In this document: piece after piece, positions 1,396 through 12,072 of the stretch
How the letters are laid out: each line of letters opens with the position of its first letter
Numbering within the stretch: position 1 is the stretch's first letter
Program-made: the position numbers and the translations under genes
Notes under the pieces: generated by a model
Database searches by the model: none
What the model was told of the DNA's origin: nothing
Seen by the model: the letters and a program-made list of their open reading frames with translations, nothing else
Sequence record: NC_042093.1
Source of the DNA: Klebsiella phage Sugarland
Length of the DNA stretch: 64,000 bases
Strand: one strand, 5' to 3'

Positions 1396-3078
1396 TTATG
1401 CAAAGAAAGCGCCGTCTTTAAAGTCAATCAAGGTACGTTGACCGTTTTCATAGGTGATTAGATGAGTCTGTGACCAGCTAGACGCGCCAATGTTGTAACC
1501 CATATCGAGGGAACCAGCGACGCCAGCAGTATAAACGCCGCCGTAAATGCTAGGCGTATGCGTATGGCCAGTGTTCATCTTACCGAGCTTGCGGAATCCT
1601 TTTGGATTGCCACGAGCGCCGTTAATGCCGTTGTGACCGTGGGAACCGCATTCAATGCCCGCGATTTTCATCGATTCATCCGTGGTTAGGAAGATCGCAG
1701 CAAAATCGCAGCCAGCAACATTGCGCAGGGCGTAATCTAGTACGTTAAAAGTATCGTCTTTATTTTCGATTGCCTCATAAATCGCAGCATTCAGGCGATA
1801 ATAAAGATGGCCGTTCGCCGGGTCTTGTTGAATGTTAGCTTTGCTATCATCCAGCCAGCGAGAAAGCGCCAGATCGTGATTAGACTCAACGATGACCGTT
1901 TGACTAAATTCACGTTCCATTTGCTCCAATACGCGCCCGGTATCGATCAGGTCGTCAATTACCTTGTCACGTCCGGCGGCATATTGTTTCGCAAGGAAAA
2001 CGCCACTAGCGCGGTTGTGATGGTTGCGCGACGTGAAATCATGCACATCATGCACAATCTGGTAACGAGGGCGCAGGATATCTACTAGCGCGGTTCCGCT
2101 AGGGTTATATTCCCAGCTTGCCGCCGCGACAGCGTGATCCAGCTTTTCGGCGTGAATGTCACCATATTGCAGCGCGGCAACATGCCCGGTTACTTCTTCG
2201 CCACCGTTAACAGTAAATTTATGATTAAGATCGTAAAACATCCCGCTTTCGTCCATCGTTTCAAGCTGGCGAGCAAAGAAGTTGCCGTTGTCGTCGATCT
2301 CTACCAGCAAAGCGCCGTAATTATGCAGCGCTTCGGCTTTTTGGCCCGCTTTTTGCTGAATATAATTTTTCAGCGTCGCTGTGCCAGTTGAATACATACG
2401 GCGCACAATGTCGCCCTTCATTGCCGGGACACTTTCAGCGGTGATTTTAGCGTGACCAATAGCCAGCCCTTTCAGGCCGTAGGCGGTCGCAGTCTCGCCA
2501 AAGCCGGACAGCGGAAAATCAGCAGTAGGCAGAATGTTAATTTCCGCCATGAATGCGAATCCTGTTTCACGGCTGCCCAAAAACACGTTTTCATTACAAA
2601 TGAAATCTGAGAAAGCATCATCATATTTCAGATCATCGTTGCCTTGCCCATTCTGGAAGCCTTTTTTGTTGTAGGCATATTTGCTAACCAGCAGGGTTGC
2701 GCCGAGGTATTTCGCGGCCTCCTGTAAGGTTTTCCAGAAGTTAGCATGAGGGAAGGTATTATTCTGAATCGACGTTAACAGAAAACGCTTACCCGGAATT
2801 ACCTTCCAGCTTTCGACGCTGGAATTAAGCTGACCAGCGGCAACGGGGCGGGAATCTTCCACCGCAACACGTTGAGCACGCTTTTCGGCAGCAGGTTTAA
2901 CAGGCTTGTTACTATCCAGCCAATCACAAATTTCGCTGGAATGTTTCGCCGTCCCGTAATGCTCTTTGCTCAATTCGTCGCAGATCTCCAGCTTTTTAGC
3001 GCGCAGACGTTTACCCCAAAAATTGAGGTTAGTTGCAGCGGTTAAAATAGCTTTTTGTTTCTCAATTGCAATGATCAT
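1396..3078 (-). CDS. A1: A1 pre-early protein with calcineurin-like metallophosphoesterase motifs
   Basis: 560 aa; motifs GDIHAE, ESNHD, GSHGHNG and NTGHTHTP resemble the D-x-H/GD/GNHD/GH/GHxH phosphoesterase signature; SD CTGGAGAA; size and position match T5 A1. Confidence 0.75.
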   Translation of the reverse strand: MIIAIEKQKAILTAATNLNFWGKRLRAKKLEICDELSKEHYGTAKHSSEICDWLDSNKPVKPAAEKRAQRVAVEDSRPVAAGQLNSSVESWKVIPGKRFLLTSIQNNTFPHANFWKTLQEAAKYLGATLLVSKYAYNKKGFQNGQGNDDLKYDDAFSDFICNENVFLGSRETGFAFMAEINILPTADFPLSGFGETATAYGLKGLAIGHAKITAESVPAMKGDIVRRMYSTGTATLKNYIQQKAGQKAEALHNYGALLVEIDDNGNFFARQLETMDESGMFYDLNHKFTVNGGEEVTGHVAALQYGDIHAEKLDHAVAAASWEYNPSGTALVDILRPRYQIVHDVHDFTSRNHHNRASGVFLAKQYAAGRDKVIDDLIDTGRVLEQMEREFSQTVIVESNHDLALSRWLDDSKANIQQDPANGHLYYRLNAAIYEAIENKDDTFNVLDYALRNVAGCDFAAIFLTTDESMKIAGIECGSHGHNGINGARGNPKGFRKLGKMNTGHTHTPSIYGGVYTAGVAGSLDMGYNIGASSWSQTHLITYENGQRTLIDFKDGAFFA

Positions 3079-3721: not shown

Positions 3722-4126
3722 TTATTCTGCCGACTCTTTTACTTCATCCTGAACGCCAACCATACGGGCGATAACGTCCAGTTGGTCGAGCTTCATTTGT
3801 TCCAAACTTGCCAGGCCGTCGGCATCTTCGATCAGGCCGTCGGCAATAGCGTGCTGAGTGAGAACGCGCACATAGTGAGCTTTACGCAGGGAGGAACCGC
3901 CGCCGACTTTGCGCGGCTTATCGGACTTCTGATAAACCTTTGCGCTAACCAGTTTAGAACGCACTTTAACATGCGATTCAGCACCGACAGCCTTTGCAAT
4001 ATCGATAAGACCTTGCGAGTTAGCCACCTCCAGACCTTCGGCAGCAATAATACCTTCATACATAGAAATCGCAGTTGCGGCGTTTGTTTCGTTCCATGCA
4101 AATTTTTCGGTTTTAGTAGCAGTCAT
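3722..4126 (-). CDS. A2: A2-like pre-early protein
   Basis: 134 aa, basic central region, SD AACTGGAGAT; position downstream of A1 as in T5. Confidence 0.5.
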   Translation of the reverse strand: MTATKTEKFAWNETNAATAISMYEGIIAAEGLEVANSQGLIDIAKAVGAESHVKVRSKLVSAKVYQKSDKPRKVGGGSSLRKAHYVRVLTQHAIADGLIEDADGLASLEQMKLDQLDVIARMVGVQDEVKESAE

Positions 4127-5859: not shown

Positions 5860-5868
5860 TTATCCACA
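5860..5868 (+). promoter_or_regulatory. DnaA box TTATCCACA (exact consensus)
   Basis: exact 9-mer. Confidence 0.6.
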
Positions 5869-5920
5869 GCACAAAATAACTTGACAAGCTGAGAAGCGGT
5901 ATAACGAGATATCCCCAGAC

Positions 5921-5956
5921 TTATCCACAGGTTATCCTACTGTATATTTATACAGT
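5921..5956. repeat. left arm of long-range inverted repeat carrying DnaA box TTATCCACA plus GTTATCCTA and an 18-bp palindrome ACTGTATATTTATACAGT
   Basis: reverse complement matches 9872-9919 apart from a 10-bp insertion. Confidence 0.65.
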
Positions 5957-6069
5957 ATATTCCAGCAGCGGTAATACTCTAATATACCCCTAGAACGCTC
6001 TATAACGCATTCTGAGCGCTTTAAATTTAGAGGCCATATTAAAGGCCATTGCTAGAGGGGCGCAGAAAA

Positions 6070-7279: not shown

Positions 7280-7774
7280 TTACAGCTTATCGCGGAAAGT
7301 ATCAAGCCGGTTGTTTAGCTCTTTAATCGCGTCGGCATGGATTTCGTCATACGTTGACACGATATCCGCCAGCTCATCCATAGTTAGCGAACTAACAATA
7401 ACGGACGTTTTCACCTCCAGCTTTTCCGGTTCCGGTTCCGCTGGTGGCGTATCCAAAAACGTTAGCGAGCCTAAATTAATTAGGAATACTTCGATTTCGG
7501 TAGCGCCGGATTCGCAGTCTATTTCAAAACTGCTATCCCCAATACAGATATCAAAGCCATAGCCATATACCCCGATAATCCGCAAGGGGATTCCCAGCAT
7601 ATCGTCGGTGTCCGGGTAGCAGTCCCGGCGGTCAATCTGGCGGGCCAGATTATCCAAGTTTTTTGGCTCGATGAAAATAGCAAAATTGCCACGATCACCA
7701 TTCTGGCGCAGGCGCTGCCATACATTAGCGATCGTCATCTTTTCGCCTTCGAAAGTAGCGGTTAGCCGTTCCAT
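7280..7774 (-). CDS. hypothetical acidic protein
   Basis: 164 aa, SD AACTGGAGAATGTT. Confidence 0.5.
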   Translation of the reverse strand: MERLTATFEGEKMTIANVWQRLRQNGDRGNFAIFIEPKNLDNLARQIDRRDCYPDTDDMLGIPLRIIGVYGYGFDICIGDSSFEIDCESGATEIEVFLINLGSLTFLDTPPAEPEPEKLEVKTSVIVSSLTMDELADIVSTYDEIHADAIKELNNRLDTFRDKL

Positions 7775-8877: not shown

Positions 8878-9216
8878 CTAGAAACAGATGCCACGGCCCC
8901 GGCCTACCTCATCCCGATTTTCATCGAAAATGATCACATTGGCATCAAACGTGCTACGGCTAACGATCATTTGAATGCCATCCTTCCCCGGTTCTGGTTC
9001 CACCATAAATCCCCATGTACCGGAATCGACTGTTACAGAATCAAAATCCTGATTCCGTAACAATGCCGTAACAGTTCCCTCTTTTGCAAAGGTTACAGAA
9101 ACACGGCACTCAATAGGCCGAACCTTTTCAGGGGTAACGATAGCCGGGGCGCTAACCTCCGCAAGGGCAGCACCGGAAAGCATAGCAAGGCCAAAGCCAA
9201 TAACGGCAAGTTTCAT
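8878..9216 (-). CDS. secreted/periplasmic small protein
   Basis: start chosen at MKLAVIGFGLAMLSGAALA (signal peptide) with SD CTGGAGAATGTT; track ORF extends 15 codons upstream. Confidence 0.45.
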   Translation of the reverse strand: MKLAVIGFGLAMLSGAALAEVSAPAIVTPEKVRPIECRVSVTFAKEGTVTALLRNQDFDSVTVDSGTWGFMVEPEPGKDGIQMIVSRSTFDANVIIFDENRDEVGRGRGICF

Positions 9217-9303
9217 AACATTCTCCAGTTTTAGGGGTTGTTCCCGTTTGAGAGATTGCATTATGCAGGAATCAGATCTGACTGTCTACCACTAAAAATA
9301 GTA

Positions 9304-9331
9304 GTTGCTTCCTGCTAGAGTTATGGTATTA
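9304..9331 (+). promoter_or_regulatory. candidate sigma70 promoter TTGCTT-16-TATTAT
   Basis: upstream of three-peptide operon. Confidence 0.35.
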
Positions 9332-9360
9332 TTATGACTCTAGACAAAGGAGATCGAAAA

Positions 9361-9474
9361 ATGACTTTTTCAATGTTGGCGCTCGGTTTAGTCGGTTCTA
9401 TGATGGTTTTGGGCTTTATCGCTTTTTGCGGGTATGCCCTTTATGACGTATTATTTAATAAGGAGGCTTTTTAA
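9361..9474 (+). CDS. tiny hydrophobic peptide 1 (37 aa)
   Basis: SD AAAGGAGATCG; MTFSMLALGLVGSMMVLGFIAFCGYALYDV...; TAATG coupling to next ORF. Confidence 0.4.
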   Translation: MTFSMLALGLVGSMMVLGFIAFCGYALYDVLFNKEAF

Positions 9475-9638
9475 TGAGAACTTTGCGCGGTGGTAGCCCC
9501 AAAAGCCGTAGCCACAATACTTACCAATTGAACGTTATTCGTGATGGTCAGAAGAAAGGCGGTGGCGGCGGTGAGTGGGGTTTTCGTGTCATCATGGTTA
9601 TTATTATGACCCTAATCTTTTTGCAGAGTTGCCAATAA
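9474..9638 (+). CDS. tiny peptide 2 (54 aa), basic N-terminus, Gly-run and C-terminal TM
   Basis: SD AAGGAGG; TAATG overlaps on both sides. Confidence 0.4.
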   Translation: MRTLRGGSPKSRSHNTYQLNVIRDGQKKGGGGGEWGFRVIMVIIMTLIFLQSCQ

Positions 9639-9748
9639 TGAGCGGCCTAATGTTTTTGGGCGTGATAGTTATTAGCGCAATCATTACCCTGGTAATAGTT
9701 TCAGTTGTAAACCATTTTTGGCCTGAGTGTTTCCACGGCGATATGTAG
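9638..9748 (+). CDS. tiny hydrophobic peptide 3 (36 aa)
   Basis: MSGLMFLGVIVISAIITLVIVSVVNHFW...; translationally coupled. Confidence 0.35.
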   Translation: MSGLMFLGVIVISAIITLVIVSVVNHFWPECFHGDM

Positions 9749-9871
9749 GAATGTCGCCGCCCTCCTCCACCGCGTGACCCCTTACTAAAATACCTCCACG
9801 AAAATTAAATCGCTTAGAACGCTTCCTAGACCCCTTAAAATCGACATTAGTAGAAAGTGTTGCTGGGAAAT

Positions 9872-9919
9872 ACTGTATAAATATACAGTAGGATAACCTG
9901 TTAATAAGTCTGTGGATAA
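9872..9919. repeat. right arm of inverted repeat with DnaA box TGTGGATAA and palindrome ACTGTATAAATATACAGT
   Basis: mirror of 5921-5956; further DnaA-like GGGGATAAC at 9973. Confidence 0.65.
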
Positions 9920-10012
9920 CTCGTCTGCGACCTTCTCAAGCGTCAATCTAATTTACAATTTTGTATAACTCTGGGGATAACTTAAATGGTAGTGTTTCTC
10001 ACTTCCTTTTAG

Positions 10013-10108
10013 AAATGCGAATCATTCTCATTCGCATTCAGCTTATCAAACGAGAATAATTATCATTCGCATTCAACTTCTCAAATGCGAATCATTCTCA
10101 TTCGTATT
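10013..10108. repeat. three copies of hairpin repeat AATGCGAATCATTCTCATTCGCATT (9-bp arms, 7-nt loop)
   Basis: copies at about 10013, 10052 (partial) and 10083. Confidence 0.6.
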
Positions 10109-10140
10109 TGCATTTCCGACCCCCGGCCCTTCCTGCGCTT

Positions 10141-10710
10141 ATGTGCGAATCCGACAATTTGTCAAGCAAAATATTACGTGAGGCTGCTAGGGTATGTGCA
10201 AATCCGATGAAAATTTATTTTTACCGCCCTGGGGGCATGTGCAAATCCGACACTAATATGTGCGTATCCGACAATAATTTTTAGGGGGAAGGCGCGCAGT
10301 TTGCTGCGGCGCAGCGGTGGGCGCGAGTCTGGGTGAGTATGTGCAAATCCGACGGGTATTTTTGGAGGAGGGATAAACGGGGTTAATTGGGGCAATTCGG
10401 GGATGATGGGGGCAGGGGGCAGATAAGGGAAAATATTATGAGTTAAATGGGGGTAAAGGGGTTGACACAGAAAAAATTCCTGTGGCTCTAAAAAACAAGC
10501 GAACTCACGGTGACACACCGTGTAAAAAGGCTTGAAATTTCAGGAGATATTTTATATTCGCAGAATCGAAGATTTTGATCCACAGCTACCGTTTGCTAGT
10601 ATATATGTGCATATCCGATAGTAGTTTTTATATGTGCATATCCGATAGTAGTTTTTATATGTGCATATCCGACATAGCTAGAGGTTAGTGCAAATCCGAT
10701 GATATTTTGT
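10141..10710. repeat. array of about 10 direct repeats with core ATGTGC(A/G)(A/T)ATCCGA(C/T)
   Basis: copies at 10141, 10195, 10238, 10258, 10339, 10604, 10631, 10658 and 10688; variable spacers; no credible ORF. Confidence 0.65.
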
Positions 10711-10714
10711 GACG

Positions 10715-10870
10715 CTTAGAACTTAGGCGAATGACGTGAGTTTGTGTGGGAACTTCGTGAGGACTTTGTGGAGTGACGCTTAGGACTTGGGAAGCTAGCG
10801 TTTTAATATGGGGATGTGTGAGGACTTCGTGGAATATGTGAAATGGCGTGGAACTTTGTGCAATTCTAGA
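10715..10870. repeat. degenerate direct repeats GACGCTTAG(A/G)ACTT and GGAACTTCGTGAGGACTTTGTGGAG
   Basis: 2-3 copies each, read directly. Confidence 0.5.
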
Positions 10871-11244
10871 AAAAGGCTTTCCGAAAAAGTGAGTTGGAAA
10901 ATAACCGCCCTCCCCTTAGGTGTATGGAAAGAACCGCCCTGTATAGAAAGATGACTAGAGTTCAACCCTAGAGCCGCGAAACGATGGTGTGTAAGGATTA
11001 CCTACTTTTAAACGTGAGTAATCGTGAGTTCATTCCCACGTTTCCTTTGTTTTCTTTATTGTGTCTTTTATTTTAGTTATAGATCCCCCTATTTCTCCCG
11101 ATGTAGCCGTGCTAGGCATCGCAGATTGTATCGTATGGCTGGTCACTCTTTGTACTCGCTTCGGAACTCCGCGCTACTAAAGTTAGCCATGATAATCTGT
11201 GCCTAGCTACATAAATTTATGAATTGTATGTAATCTATGAGATT

Positions 11245-11274
11245 ATTATAACACGGGCATAAAATAACTGTCAA
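11245..11274 (-). promoter_or_regulatory. near-consensus sigma70 promoter TTGACA-18-TATAAT pointing leftward into the ORF-free repeat region
   Basis: minus strand TTGACAGTTATTTTATGCCCGTGTTATAAT. Confidence 0.5.
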
Positions 11275-11290
11275 GAACATTTTGTAAGAG

Positions 11291-11328
11291 TTTGAAAAAG
11301 TGACAGGGACTTGGCGAGAGTCCCTGTG
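11291..11328 (-). terminator. intrinsic terminator
   Basis: minus strand ACAGGGACTCTCGCCAAGTCCCTGT then CACTTTTTC. Confidence 0.55.
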
Positions 11329-11334
11329 ATTAGC

Positions 11335-12072
11335 TTAGAGTTGATCTTTCCTTATGAATCTACCTTGGCTTAACATTGCGATATACAATGCTTCCGGGGA
11401 AGTCTCTAGGTGGTCTAACTCTTTAATGTCGAACGAACCTTTTGGTAACTCGCCAGGCTCGTCATGATCATATAAATACTCGACAGCATCTCCTAGCATG
11501 AGAGCATTCCCGATCTTCTTGATCTTTGAATATCTCTCTTTTACTAATGCTATTAACGCTAAATCCTCTTTGGTAAGGTTTAACTGCCTAGAGAGTTTTA
11601 CTGTCGTCTTCGTTATCTGTACAGCAATATCCAGAACTGAGGCTTGGTAATCTTTCCAGTCCTCAACCTTTTGAGCATCCCGTTGAAGATGTGGAAAATC
11701 GATATAGTCCTGGCATTTTCCATCAGGAATATGGTAACTGGGGAAGTCTTCCACTGCCTGCTGCCACGTAACTGTCTTCACCTTATCATGCGGATATGGC
11801 TCATCCATTATAACGTGGAAGGAGTTAACCATGAACTTCTTCTCAGTAACCGGATACATCTTGTGAACTTTATTCAAGTCCACGTAACCAGGAGCTAACG
11901 TTGTTTTCTTAGCATCCTTAGAATAAACAGGCTTGCCATTCTTCATCTCCGCTGGTCTTAGCTCTCCGGCTATTAGCACAGCGGATTTTTCTTCAAATGT
12001 TAGCTCTGAGAAGTTTTTACCTTTGGACTCCTTGGCTAGGGTGAATATAACCTTCAGCTTCTCTAGATTCAT
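11335..12072 (-). CDS. hypothetical protein
   Basis: 245-aa ORF. Confidence 0.5.
   Translation of the reverse strand: MNLEKLKVIFTLAKESKGKNFSELTFEEKSAVLIAGELRPAEMKNGKPVYSKDAKKTTLAPGYVDLNKVHKMYPVTEKKFMVNSFHVIMDEPYPHDKVKTVTWQQAVEDFPSYHIPDGKCQDYIDFPHLQRDAQKVEDWKDYQASVLDIAVQITKTTVKLSRQLNLTKEDLALIALVKERYSKIKKIGNALMLGDAVEYLYDHDEPGELPKGSFDIKELDHLETSPEALYIAMLSQGRFIRKDQL

Follow-up and report, generated by a model that had tools for sequence, protein, structure and literature searches.

A field of short repeats in Klebsiella phage Sugarland (sequence record NC_042093.1), analysed here within a stretch of 64,000 nucleotides (the window), is, judged by its homology and the order of its elements, the Klebsiella phage copy of a strongly conserved region known from phage T5 under the name of injection stop signal (iss) or ‘Repeat Region 3’. 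The field and its associated elements occupy 9861-10940, about 1.1 kb. Very probably they form a conserved non-coding, cis-acting stretch that lies across the right, inner end of the left terminal repeat and carries predicted protein-binding sites, rather than a gene or an RNA.

Correspondence with the T5 injection stop region

The relationship is readily seen in database searches. Using megablast, 9700-11300 matches Klebsiella phage Spivey (Sugarlandvirus, Demerecviridae) over its full length at 99.9% identity, and 249 T5-like records are also matched. The more sensitive blastn matches 535 phage records, the part shared across genera being 9869-10494. The T5 match (NC_005859; 75% identity over 49% of the query) falls under the feature ‘injection stop signal (iss)’, and pairwise alignment shows near-identity to T5 from palindrome D through the fifth copy of direct repeat D (DRD). 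The order of elements is identical in the window, T5, Seafire (Epseptimavirus), Erwinia phage KEY and Serratia phage Kamaji.

At the homologous place in T5, the annotation of AY587007 (Wang et al. 2005) lists palindromes C-J, inverted repeats D'/C' (IRD' and IRC'), direct repeats B and C, a ‘7.9% major nick’ and nine ‘direct repeat D’ copies, while AY543070 and AY692264 label 9140-10149, which covers DRD1-6, ‘injection stop signal (iss)’. The T5 iss region, or ‘Repeat Region 3’, reportedly goes back to the 1987 work of Heusterspreute et al. It has been described as a 1.2-kb untranslated block of T5-like phages which lies mostly in the left terminal repeat, runs over into unique DNA and is conserved above the level of the neighbouring genes (Davison, bioRxiv 10.1101/866236). 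Since Sugarland, as well as IME260, was among the 25 phages compared in that work, the region is already known: the element has been described and the window holds no new kind of element.

All those defining features of the T5 iss region that lend themselves to testing are present in the window, namely its position, the absence of genes, IRD'/IRC', direct repeat C (DRC), DRD, the homology itself and the linked genes. The latter are the pre-early genes dmp (94-810), A1 (1396-3078) and A2 (3722-4126), found in the same terminal repeat; the A1 and A2 products are 73% and 66% identical to those of T5. Regarding position, the initial annotation had set the field at the injection-stop and terminal-repeat boundary of a T5-like genome, and this proved right. 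In alignment, the window opens at position 1 of KpGranit, a phage whose genome ends were set by PhageTerm, so that window position 1 is the physical left genome end, and the end of the left terminal repeat, 10488, falls inside the field. Copy number (7-9) and sequence of the repeats are conserved in Klebsiella phages, T5, Epseptimavirus, an Erwinia phage and a Serratia phage; the lack of conservation that the initial annotation had named as telling against it is thus not seen.

The direct repeat D arrays

The 15-mer counted about ten times in the initial annotation is the ‘direct repeat D’ of T5, (A/T)TGTGC(A/G)AATCCGAC, for which the T5 annotation lists copies 1-9. The repeat is real and far beyond chance, with the count corrected to nine. 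There are eight matches to ATGTGCRWATCCGAY, all on the + strand and all in 10141-10673, against 0.02 expected (about 400-fold), and a ninth, variant copy, TAGTGCAAATCCGAT, is found at 10686-10700 on the same strand. Single chance hits with one mismatch aside, the core GTGCNNATCCGA is absent from the rest of the window and from the KpGranit genome's remaining 50 kb. The copies fall into two arrays (Table 1). Array A lies wholly inside the terminal repeat and matches T5 copies 1-6, with the 81-bp gap between its copies 4 and 5 being the same in T5 and Seafire. Array B, equivalent to T5 copies 7-9, lies in unique DNA just beyond the terminal repeat; being single-copy (10605-10700), it is an easy target for engineering.

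Among 41 DRD copies from five genera, core positions 0-3, 6, 9 and 11 are invariant, while the spacers and the spacing vary, without helical phasing; in the window the spacings are 21, 27, 43, 53, 81 and 266 nt. Neither RNA-structure covariation nor compensatory pairing was detected in the repeats. Since the core is fixed and the spacers vary, the DRD bears the signature of a sequence-specific protein site, not that of RNA or coding sequence. The conservation pattern, a 12-nt core held invariant with spacing left free, is consistent with the ‘protein-binding landing pad’ suggested beforehand, and we infer that a protein binds there. A CRISPR array was considered and rejected: the repeats have 15 nt where at least 23 are needed, and spacings of 21-266 nt do not resemble the required regular spacers of about 30 nt.

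Coding potential and flanking genes

The longest open reading frame (ORF) of interest in the field, at 10174..10518 on the - strand, would encode 114 residues from a GTG start. Pfam and PHROG matches for ORFs in and around the field are uninformative, and the 114-residue ORF has none. In KpGranit, GZ8 and IME260 it is interrupted by indels of 1 nt, and the annotations of Spivey, KpGranit and T5 leave the region without features. With no family match and with frameshifts in close relatives, this proline-rich ORF is not credible as a gene, as had been supposed from the start, and the field has no credible ORF.

The first early gene to the right (11335-12072, - strand) encodes 245 residues assigned to phrog_8993 (function unknown), with no Pfam match, and is not homologous to the gene at the same position in T5 (T5.018, ‘33.8 kDa early protein’). 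On the left flank there is almost no DNA homology (Davison, bioRxiv 10.1101/866236). As T5 and Sugarland lack homology in the flanking genes and the DNA between these is conserved, selection acts on the DNA itself.

The end of the left terminal repeat

In six phages the record or the terminal repeat ends at, or no more than 4 nt from, CTGTGGNTC (window 10488). The KpGranit (PhageTerm) and GZ8 records end ...TTCCTGTGGCTC, corresponding to window 10488; the T5 left terminal repeat ends ...CTGTGGATC, homologous to the terminus in the window; Shivani ends ...CTTGTGGATC and phiR2-01, whose repeat was set by read-coverage doubling, ...CTTGTGGCTC; and Stitch ends 4 nt later. The IME260 end (NC_041899) is annotated 20 nt further right. 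By homology to these ends, the left terminal repeat in the window is 10,488 bp long and ends at 10488. This position splits the DRDs, with five inside the repeat, 135-347 bp to the left of the cut, and four outside, 117-212 bp to its right; the corresponding numbers in T5 are six and three. A search for a motif common to the left and right genome ends gave nothing convincing. The TTGACA at 10462, within the terminus motif, was tried as a promoter and discarded: it has no usable -10 and was not found in the promoter scan.

To the left of the terminus lies a tract of G runs, with a canonical G-quadruplex motif at 10370-10402 that is one of only two in the window. GC skew flips to +0.17/+0.25 over 10001-11000. 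T5, Seafire and KEY share the G-richness of the tract but not the strict motif, which Kamaji lacks as well, so that a G-quadruplex was rejected as a conserved feature. A KOPS-like GGGCAGGG is present within the tract at 10410. Beyond the terminus, where the window has a GC-rich stem-loop, T5 has a different GC hairpin, GGGCC-TTCG-GCCC.

Table 1. Features of the repeat field and its surroundings, in window coordinates; a dot in the strand column means that no strand is assigned.
Feature	Position	Strand	Remarks
Consensus DnaA boxes TTATCCACA	5860-5868 and 5921-5929		At the upstream inverted partner
Inverted partner of 9861-9924	5904..5967	.	64 nt, 91% complementary; equivalent of T5 ‘IRC-spacer-IRD’
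LexA-box-like palindrome	5938-5957		In the upstream partner; TACTGTATATTTATACAGTA, 19/20 against LexA consensus TACTGTATATATATACAGTA
IRD'-spacer-IRC' module	9861..9990	.	Nearly identical to T5 AY587007 9330-9462; DnaA and LexA scans
Palindrome D, near-consensus LexA box	9871-9890	.	TACTGTATAAATATACAGTA, 19/20 against TACTGTATATATATACAGTA
DnaA-box pair 1	9899-9907 and 9911-9919		TGTTAATAA and TGTGGATAA, 3 bp apart
DnaA-box pair 2	9960-9968 and 9972-9980		TTTGTATAA and TGGGGATAA, 3 bp apart
Three tandem 35-bp units	10013..10117	.	Equivalent to T5 direct repeat C / palindromes E, G, I; alignment to T5
CCTGCGC	10131..10138	.	Homologue of the sequence at T5 ‘major single-stranded nick 1, 7.9%’; T5 annotation
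DRD array A, five copies aTGTGCRWATCCGAY	10141..10353	+	Starts 10141, 10194, 10237, 10258, 10339
G-run tract	10370..10462	+	Seven runs of G>=4 in 93 bp; their strand has its 3' end at the right genome end
Terminus motif TTGACA-N12-CTGTGGCTC	10462..10488	+	Physical right end of the left terminal repeat at 10488
GC-rich stem-loop CACGGTG-ACA-CACCGTG	10506..10522	.	7-bp stem; z = -3.3; 18 nt outside the repeat end
DRD array B, four copies	10605..10700	+	27-bp spacing; starts 10605, 10632, 10659, 10686
Degenerate 61-64-bp duplication	10709..10860	+	GTGACGCTTAGRACTT and RGGACTTYGTGG sub-repeats; duplication spans 10709-10833
Two AACCGCCCT boxes	10903..10940	+	At 10903 and 10932; similarly placed are 2-3 copies in T5, Seafire and KEY, one in Kamaji
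Weak terminator-like hairpin for leftward transcripts	10955..10971	-	Invariant in Sugarlandvirus; between promoter and field
Conserved box GGGGGATCTATAACTAAAATAAAAG	11065-11089		Follows the long hairpin
Long imperfect hairpin closed by GCUAGGC/GCCUAGC	11112..11206	-	30 nt downstream of the predicted start
Sigma-70 promoter TTGACA-18-(TG)TATAAT	11245..11274	-	Score 12/12; TG extended -10
Early-operon terminator	11303-11327	-	Precedes the leftward promoter

The left module: LexA-like palindromes, DnaA boxes and 35-bp units

The segment 9861..9990 is the best conserved across genera and is kept even in Vibrio phage VCPH. A new lead arises here, since its match to the consensus makes the ‘palindrome D’ of T5 a near-consensus LexA (SOS) box. 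In the whole window, CTGT-N8-ACAG sites occur only at 9871-9890 and 5938-5957, so that each arm of the inverted repeat pair, 3.9 kb apart, holds one LexA-like site beside DnaA boxes. The LexA-like site is retained in T5, Seafire, KEY, Kamaji, IME260, Stitch, phiR2-01 and VCPH. Neither LexA nor SOS is mentioned by Davison (bioRxiv 10.1101/866236).

Of the three tandem 35-bp units that follow, units 1 and 3 are palindromes with 9-11-bp stems and fold at z = -3.5 and -4.8, whereas unit 2 is degenerate and does not fold. The initial annotation saw here three copies of a 25-bp hairpin. Two of these stand, AATGCGAATCATTCTCATTCGCATT being exact once (10014) and present again with a single mismatch (10084); the third (10049) is the degenerate member of the tandem array. 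A Fur box was considered as the identity of the units and judged too weak, with matches of only 13-15/19 and 48 hits of at least 13/19 in the window compared with 19 in shuffled sequences. Fur-box-like sequences are seen at 201-225, 1002-1026 and 10011-10099, the 35-bp units reaching 16/19 in T5. The closest, an 18/19 match to GATAATGATAATCATTATC at 201-219, lies inside dmp, where it encodes DDDNDY, and T5 has a 16/19 match at the same place. Fur-like hits of at least 15/19 in the window all lie in the terminal repeat and may be a coincidence of coding sequence and A/T-rich palindromes. To the right of the units, the nick sequence CTGCGC is found 10 nt before the first DRD in the window, T5, Seafire, KEY, GZ8 and KpGranit, and 8 nt before it in Kamaji.

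The comparison with VCPH (2497-2975 of the compared stretch) is informative as to which sites are fixed and which drift. This phage, a distant relative, retains the LexA box together with two pairs of DnaA boxes set 62 bp apart, while the 35-bp hairpins are replaced by about ten tandem 15-bp units of the GTTGCnnnnGCAAC type (GTTGC...GCAAC) and the DRDs by four AGTGCGAAATCTA repeats. Because VCPH keeps the former and swaps the latter, the left sites (LexA, DnaA) would be read by host proteins, and the DRDs and palindromic units by co-evolving phage proteins.

A leftward promoter and hairpin module

A further lead is what appears from comparative sequence to be an unannotated promoter-plus-hairpin module, conserved across genera. 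The near-consensus promoter reported in the initial annotation (TTGACA-18-TATAAT, 11274..11245, - strand) is present and proves to be a perfect consensus (12/12). T5, Seafire, KEY, IME260 and the Sugarland group all conserve its pattern, cTTGACA-N17/18-TGnTAnAAT, with a -35 of TTTACA in Kamaji. The promoter is the only part of 10880-11300 with a blastn match outside Sugarlandvirus. The T5 records carry no annotation of it.

The long hairpin that follows differs in its interior from phage to phage. In Kpn13-P1, K7_rec10 and Seafire the interior is unrelated, yet each folds to a hairpin of 95-125 nt with GCUAGGC/GCCUAGC as its closing pair of sequences, with fold scores of z = -3.8 to -7.3 relative to mononucleotide shuffles, and a long hairpin occupies the same position in T5, KEY, Kamaji and IME260. 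In the module overall, the hairpin measures 95-130 nt and its fold is retained while its interior is replaced. Alignment of the promoter-hairpin region with MAFFT/RNAalifold gave four compensatory pairs; formal covariation is weak because the variable interior cannot be aligned, and single-sequence folds were used instead. As G·U pairs in the hairpin show no strand bias, their counts do not separate a function at the RNA level from one at the DNA level. No Rfam 15 family matches either strand of 9000-12000 at E<=1, and no transcript map of a T5-like phage was found in the literature.

Several relatives (K7_rec10, FFH1, T5_ev219 and SCF) carry homing endonuclease genes at or beside the promoter. 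The insertion in K7_rec10 (1279-1668 of the compared stretch) replaces the -35 box, and the junction looks like an insertion hot spot.

Function of the field

How the DNA of T5-like phages comes to stop at 8% and restart has been an open question for some 60 years, and papers of 2023-2026 still describe the position and mechanism of the iss as undetermined. T5 DNA enters left end first and halts at 7.9%, adjoining a nick, and transfer resumes only once A1 and A2 have been made, A2 being a DNA-binding dimer that associates with the membrane via A1 (Davison, bioRxiv 10.1101/866236). Following the same author, the left module (9861-10117) is the likely arrest element: host proteins may hold its DNA, among them DnaA, as Davison's model has it, and possibly LexA; DNA structure may do so too, alone or in addition. 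In T5, the DNA of the left module would be just inside or crossing the envelope when, at about 8% of the genome, transfer comes to a halt, and the pause point would adjoin the conserved nick sequence CTGCGC (window 10133).

The right module (10141-10700) would then be formed by the nine same-strand DRDs, in two arrays around the genome end at 10488. Their invariant core, their free spacers and their drift in VCPH point to one conserved phage-encoded DNA-binding protein. Our tentative candidate, slightly favoured over A2/A1, is the small subunit of terminase, which would mark the concatemer cut and the start of packaging. Since the left end of T5 leaves first, a last-in-first-out order would have the right end packaged first, with the initiating concatemer cut made at 10488. 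That the DRD arrays bracket the genome-end cut as a pac site would is, by analogy, another new lead.

Possible, if doubtful, is the classical alternative in which the DRDs are bound by the A2/A1 proteins that restart DNA transfer. The whole field would then be the injection stop and restart signal, and A2, with A1, would use the DRDs as a landing pad, binding successive sites as they emerge and ratcheting or releasing the DNA for the second step of transfer. The iss annotation of T5 (9140-10149) indeed takes in DRD1-6, and A2 has suitable properties, being a DNA-binding dimer that is needed for second-step transfer and associated with the membrane via A1. Moreover, A1 (73%) and A2 (66%) are among the few proteins of the left terminal repeat common to Sugarland and T5, paralleling the conservation of the DRDs, and because the latter begin 3 nt beyond the nick sequence that marks the 7.9% stop, they would be the first DNA to enter on restart. 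On the other hand, DRDs are asymmetric direct repeats and a dimer such as A2 would be better suited by the palindromic 35-bp units. Four DRDs lie outside the terminal repeat, with the arrays bracketing the genome end, a geometry not predicted by ejection. In addition, no report of sequence-specific binding by A2 was found in the literature consulted, and A2 has no Pfam or PDB match; a PDB sequence search with A2 and the small terminase returned nothing. Less probable again is an iteron-type replication origin, composed of DnaA boxes, nine 15-bp iterons and a promoter and hairpin supplying a primer RNA. The layout does resemble iteron origins such as RK2 oriV and P1 oriR, with paired DnaA boxes, 5+4 same-strand direct repeats, A/T-rich spacers, a G-rich block and, nearby, a strong promoter followed by a long hairpin. 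Against this, the iteron spacing is irregular, no conserved initiator (Rep) gene adjoins, the neighbour at 11335-12072 not being homologous to T5.018, electron microscopy put the T5 origins near the genome centre, and the replication genes of T5 are silent during first-step transfer (both Davison, bioRxiv 10.1101/866236).

One proposal of the initial annotation was that leftward transcription from the 11274 promoter turns the repeats into a non-coding RNA, which we regard as quite improbable. Certainly the promoter matches the consensus perfectly, has an extended -10, is aimed at the field and is conserved across genera, and the terminator-like hairpin in between is weak enough for read-through to be possible. 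However, the start site is about 375 nt from the right edge of the field, and both the long hairpin (11112-11206) and the terminator-like one (10955-10971) intervene; since the promoter first drives the conserved long hairpin, transcription of the repeats is unsupported. Other observations weaken the idea further: five DRDs (1-5) are duplicated in the right terminal repeat with no promoter adjacent, the DRD is a fixed 12-mer with free spacers and no compensatory pairing, no Rfam family matches, and a homing endonuclease gene sits at or beside the promoter in some relatives. It is more likely that the promoter makes a short structured RNA, or has a role at the DNA level near the boundary. Hardly credible is the remaining notion that the field is coding, through the 114-residue ORF or small + strand ORFs, or else a chance or low-complexity artefact. 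ORFs of 37-114 residues can be drawn across it and some deposited genomes annotate ‘hypothetical proteins’ there, but family matches are lacking, the long ORF is frameshifted in three relatives and the region is empty in the three annotations mentioned above, while the excess of repeats over expectation speaks against chance.

Several points weigh against arrest in the left module combined with packaging from the DRDs. The packaging idea leans on a general last-in-first-out rule rather than on T5 data. Conservation does not choose between A2 and the small terminase, since the two are similarly conserved between phage groups (66% and about 61% identical, respectively), and a cut at the left end would need another signal, as no DRD is near that end. 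T5 is generally regarded as plating on recA hosts, so that cleavage of LexA would not be required for restart. As to the cut itself, Seafire (PhageTerm) and AY692264 put the end of the repeat at the nick sequence CTGCGC, and in saus132 (NC_047884) it is elsewhere, 35 nt after DRD6. Read ends derived from nicks may be mistaken for genome ends by terminus callers; the disagreement between nick and CTGTGGNTC matters for the annotation and engineering of therapeutic Klebsiella phages. Finally, the literature holds no mutational mapping of the iss, even for T5, and experimental verification of two-step transfer is limited to T5 and BF23 (Davison, bioRxiv 10.1101/866236).

A more elaborate scheme, which we think unlikely as a whole, would see three machines side by side. 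A host-factor anchor (LexA/DnaA) would be duplicated as the inverted pair 3.9 kb apart; the 35-bp palindromes would be operators bound by dimeric A2; and the DRDs, with no role in injection, would be a pac-like pad for the small terminase that fixes the right genome end at CTGTGGNTC and starts packaging. The unannotated conserved sigma-70 promoter would meanwhile drive a long hairpin RNA toward the right genome end.

Likeness to known systems

The T5 iss region shares with the Sugarland field its place at the right end of the left terminal repeat, the overrun into unique DNA and the upstream inverted partner. Palindrome D, DnaA pairs, DRC units, nick, DRDs, G-rich block, terminus motif and more DRDs follow in the same order, and there is direct nucleotide similarity, with the same DRD core GTGCRAATCCGA in nine copies altogether. 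The differences are that the DRDs are split 5+4 in Sugarland rather than 6+3, that the copies of array B in Sugarland carry an A-to-T change (GTGCATATCCGA) and recur as a regular tandem every 27 bp, that three 35-bp units stand in place of the longer, more complex DRC/DRE block of T5, and that only the Sugarland G tract has a canonical G-quadruplex motif. The flanking genes are unrelated, those on the left being on the opposite strand.

Packaging sites offer a looser parallel. The cos site of phage lambda has the arrangement cosQ-cosN-cosB with R sites, and the pac site of SPP1 is pacL-pacC-pacR. As there, short repeats of a single family appear to flank a fixed cut that makes a genome end, and the motif is unique in the genome. 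The Sugarland field does contain such a cut (10488), beside which small terminase would bind the DRDs. Unlike these sites, 10-kb direct terminal repeats of the T5 type need a second cut at the left end, which is free of DRDs, and there is no sequence similarity.

The replication origins RK2 oriV, P1 oriR and pSC101 are comparable, again by analogy, in setting DnaA boxes beside 15-20-bp repeats of one orientation and A/T- and G/C-rich blocks; they differ in that Sugarland lacks an adjacent initiator gene and has irregular spacing, and in that T5 origins map elsewhere. In phage T7, transcription from the phiOR promoter toward the concatemer junction is needed for end processing. The two systems have in common a conserved promoter a few hundred bp from the repeat boundary, which fires toward it, and hairpin-forming sequence nearby. 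The Sugarland promoter, however, is of the host sigma-70 type rather than the phage-polymerase type and would approach from the side of the unique DNA, in the presumed direction of packaging.

Other features

To the right of array B, the GGAACTTCGTG-type repeats of the initial annotation are real, if loose, with three copies at up to 2 mismatches within 10749-10860, and belong to the degenerate 61-64-bp duplication with its GTGACGCTTAGRACTT and RGGACTTYGTGG sub-repeats. The repeats of 10709..10860 are kept within Sugarlandvirus, whereas T5 has different, CTAG-rich repeats there.

Chi sites are absent from the repeat field. The 64 kb contain ten exact ones (GCTGGTGG), compared with about two expected for random sequence, at 7440, 8408, 14031, 18248, 20860, 29383, 32357, 50207, 60948 and 63188. 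Two of them lie inside the terminal repeat, on the + strand, in the orientation read by RecBCD entering from the right genome end.

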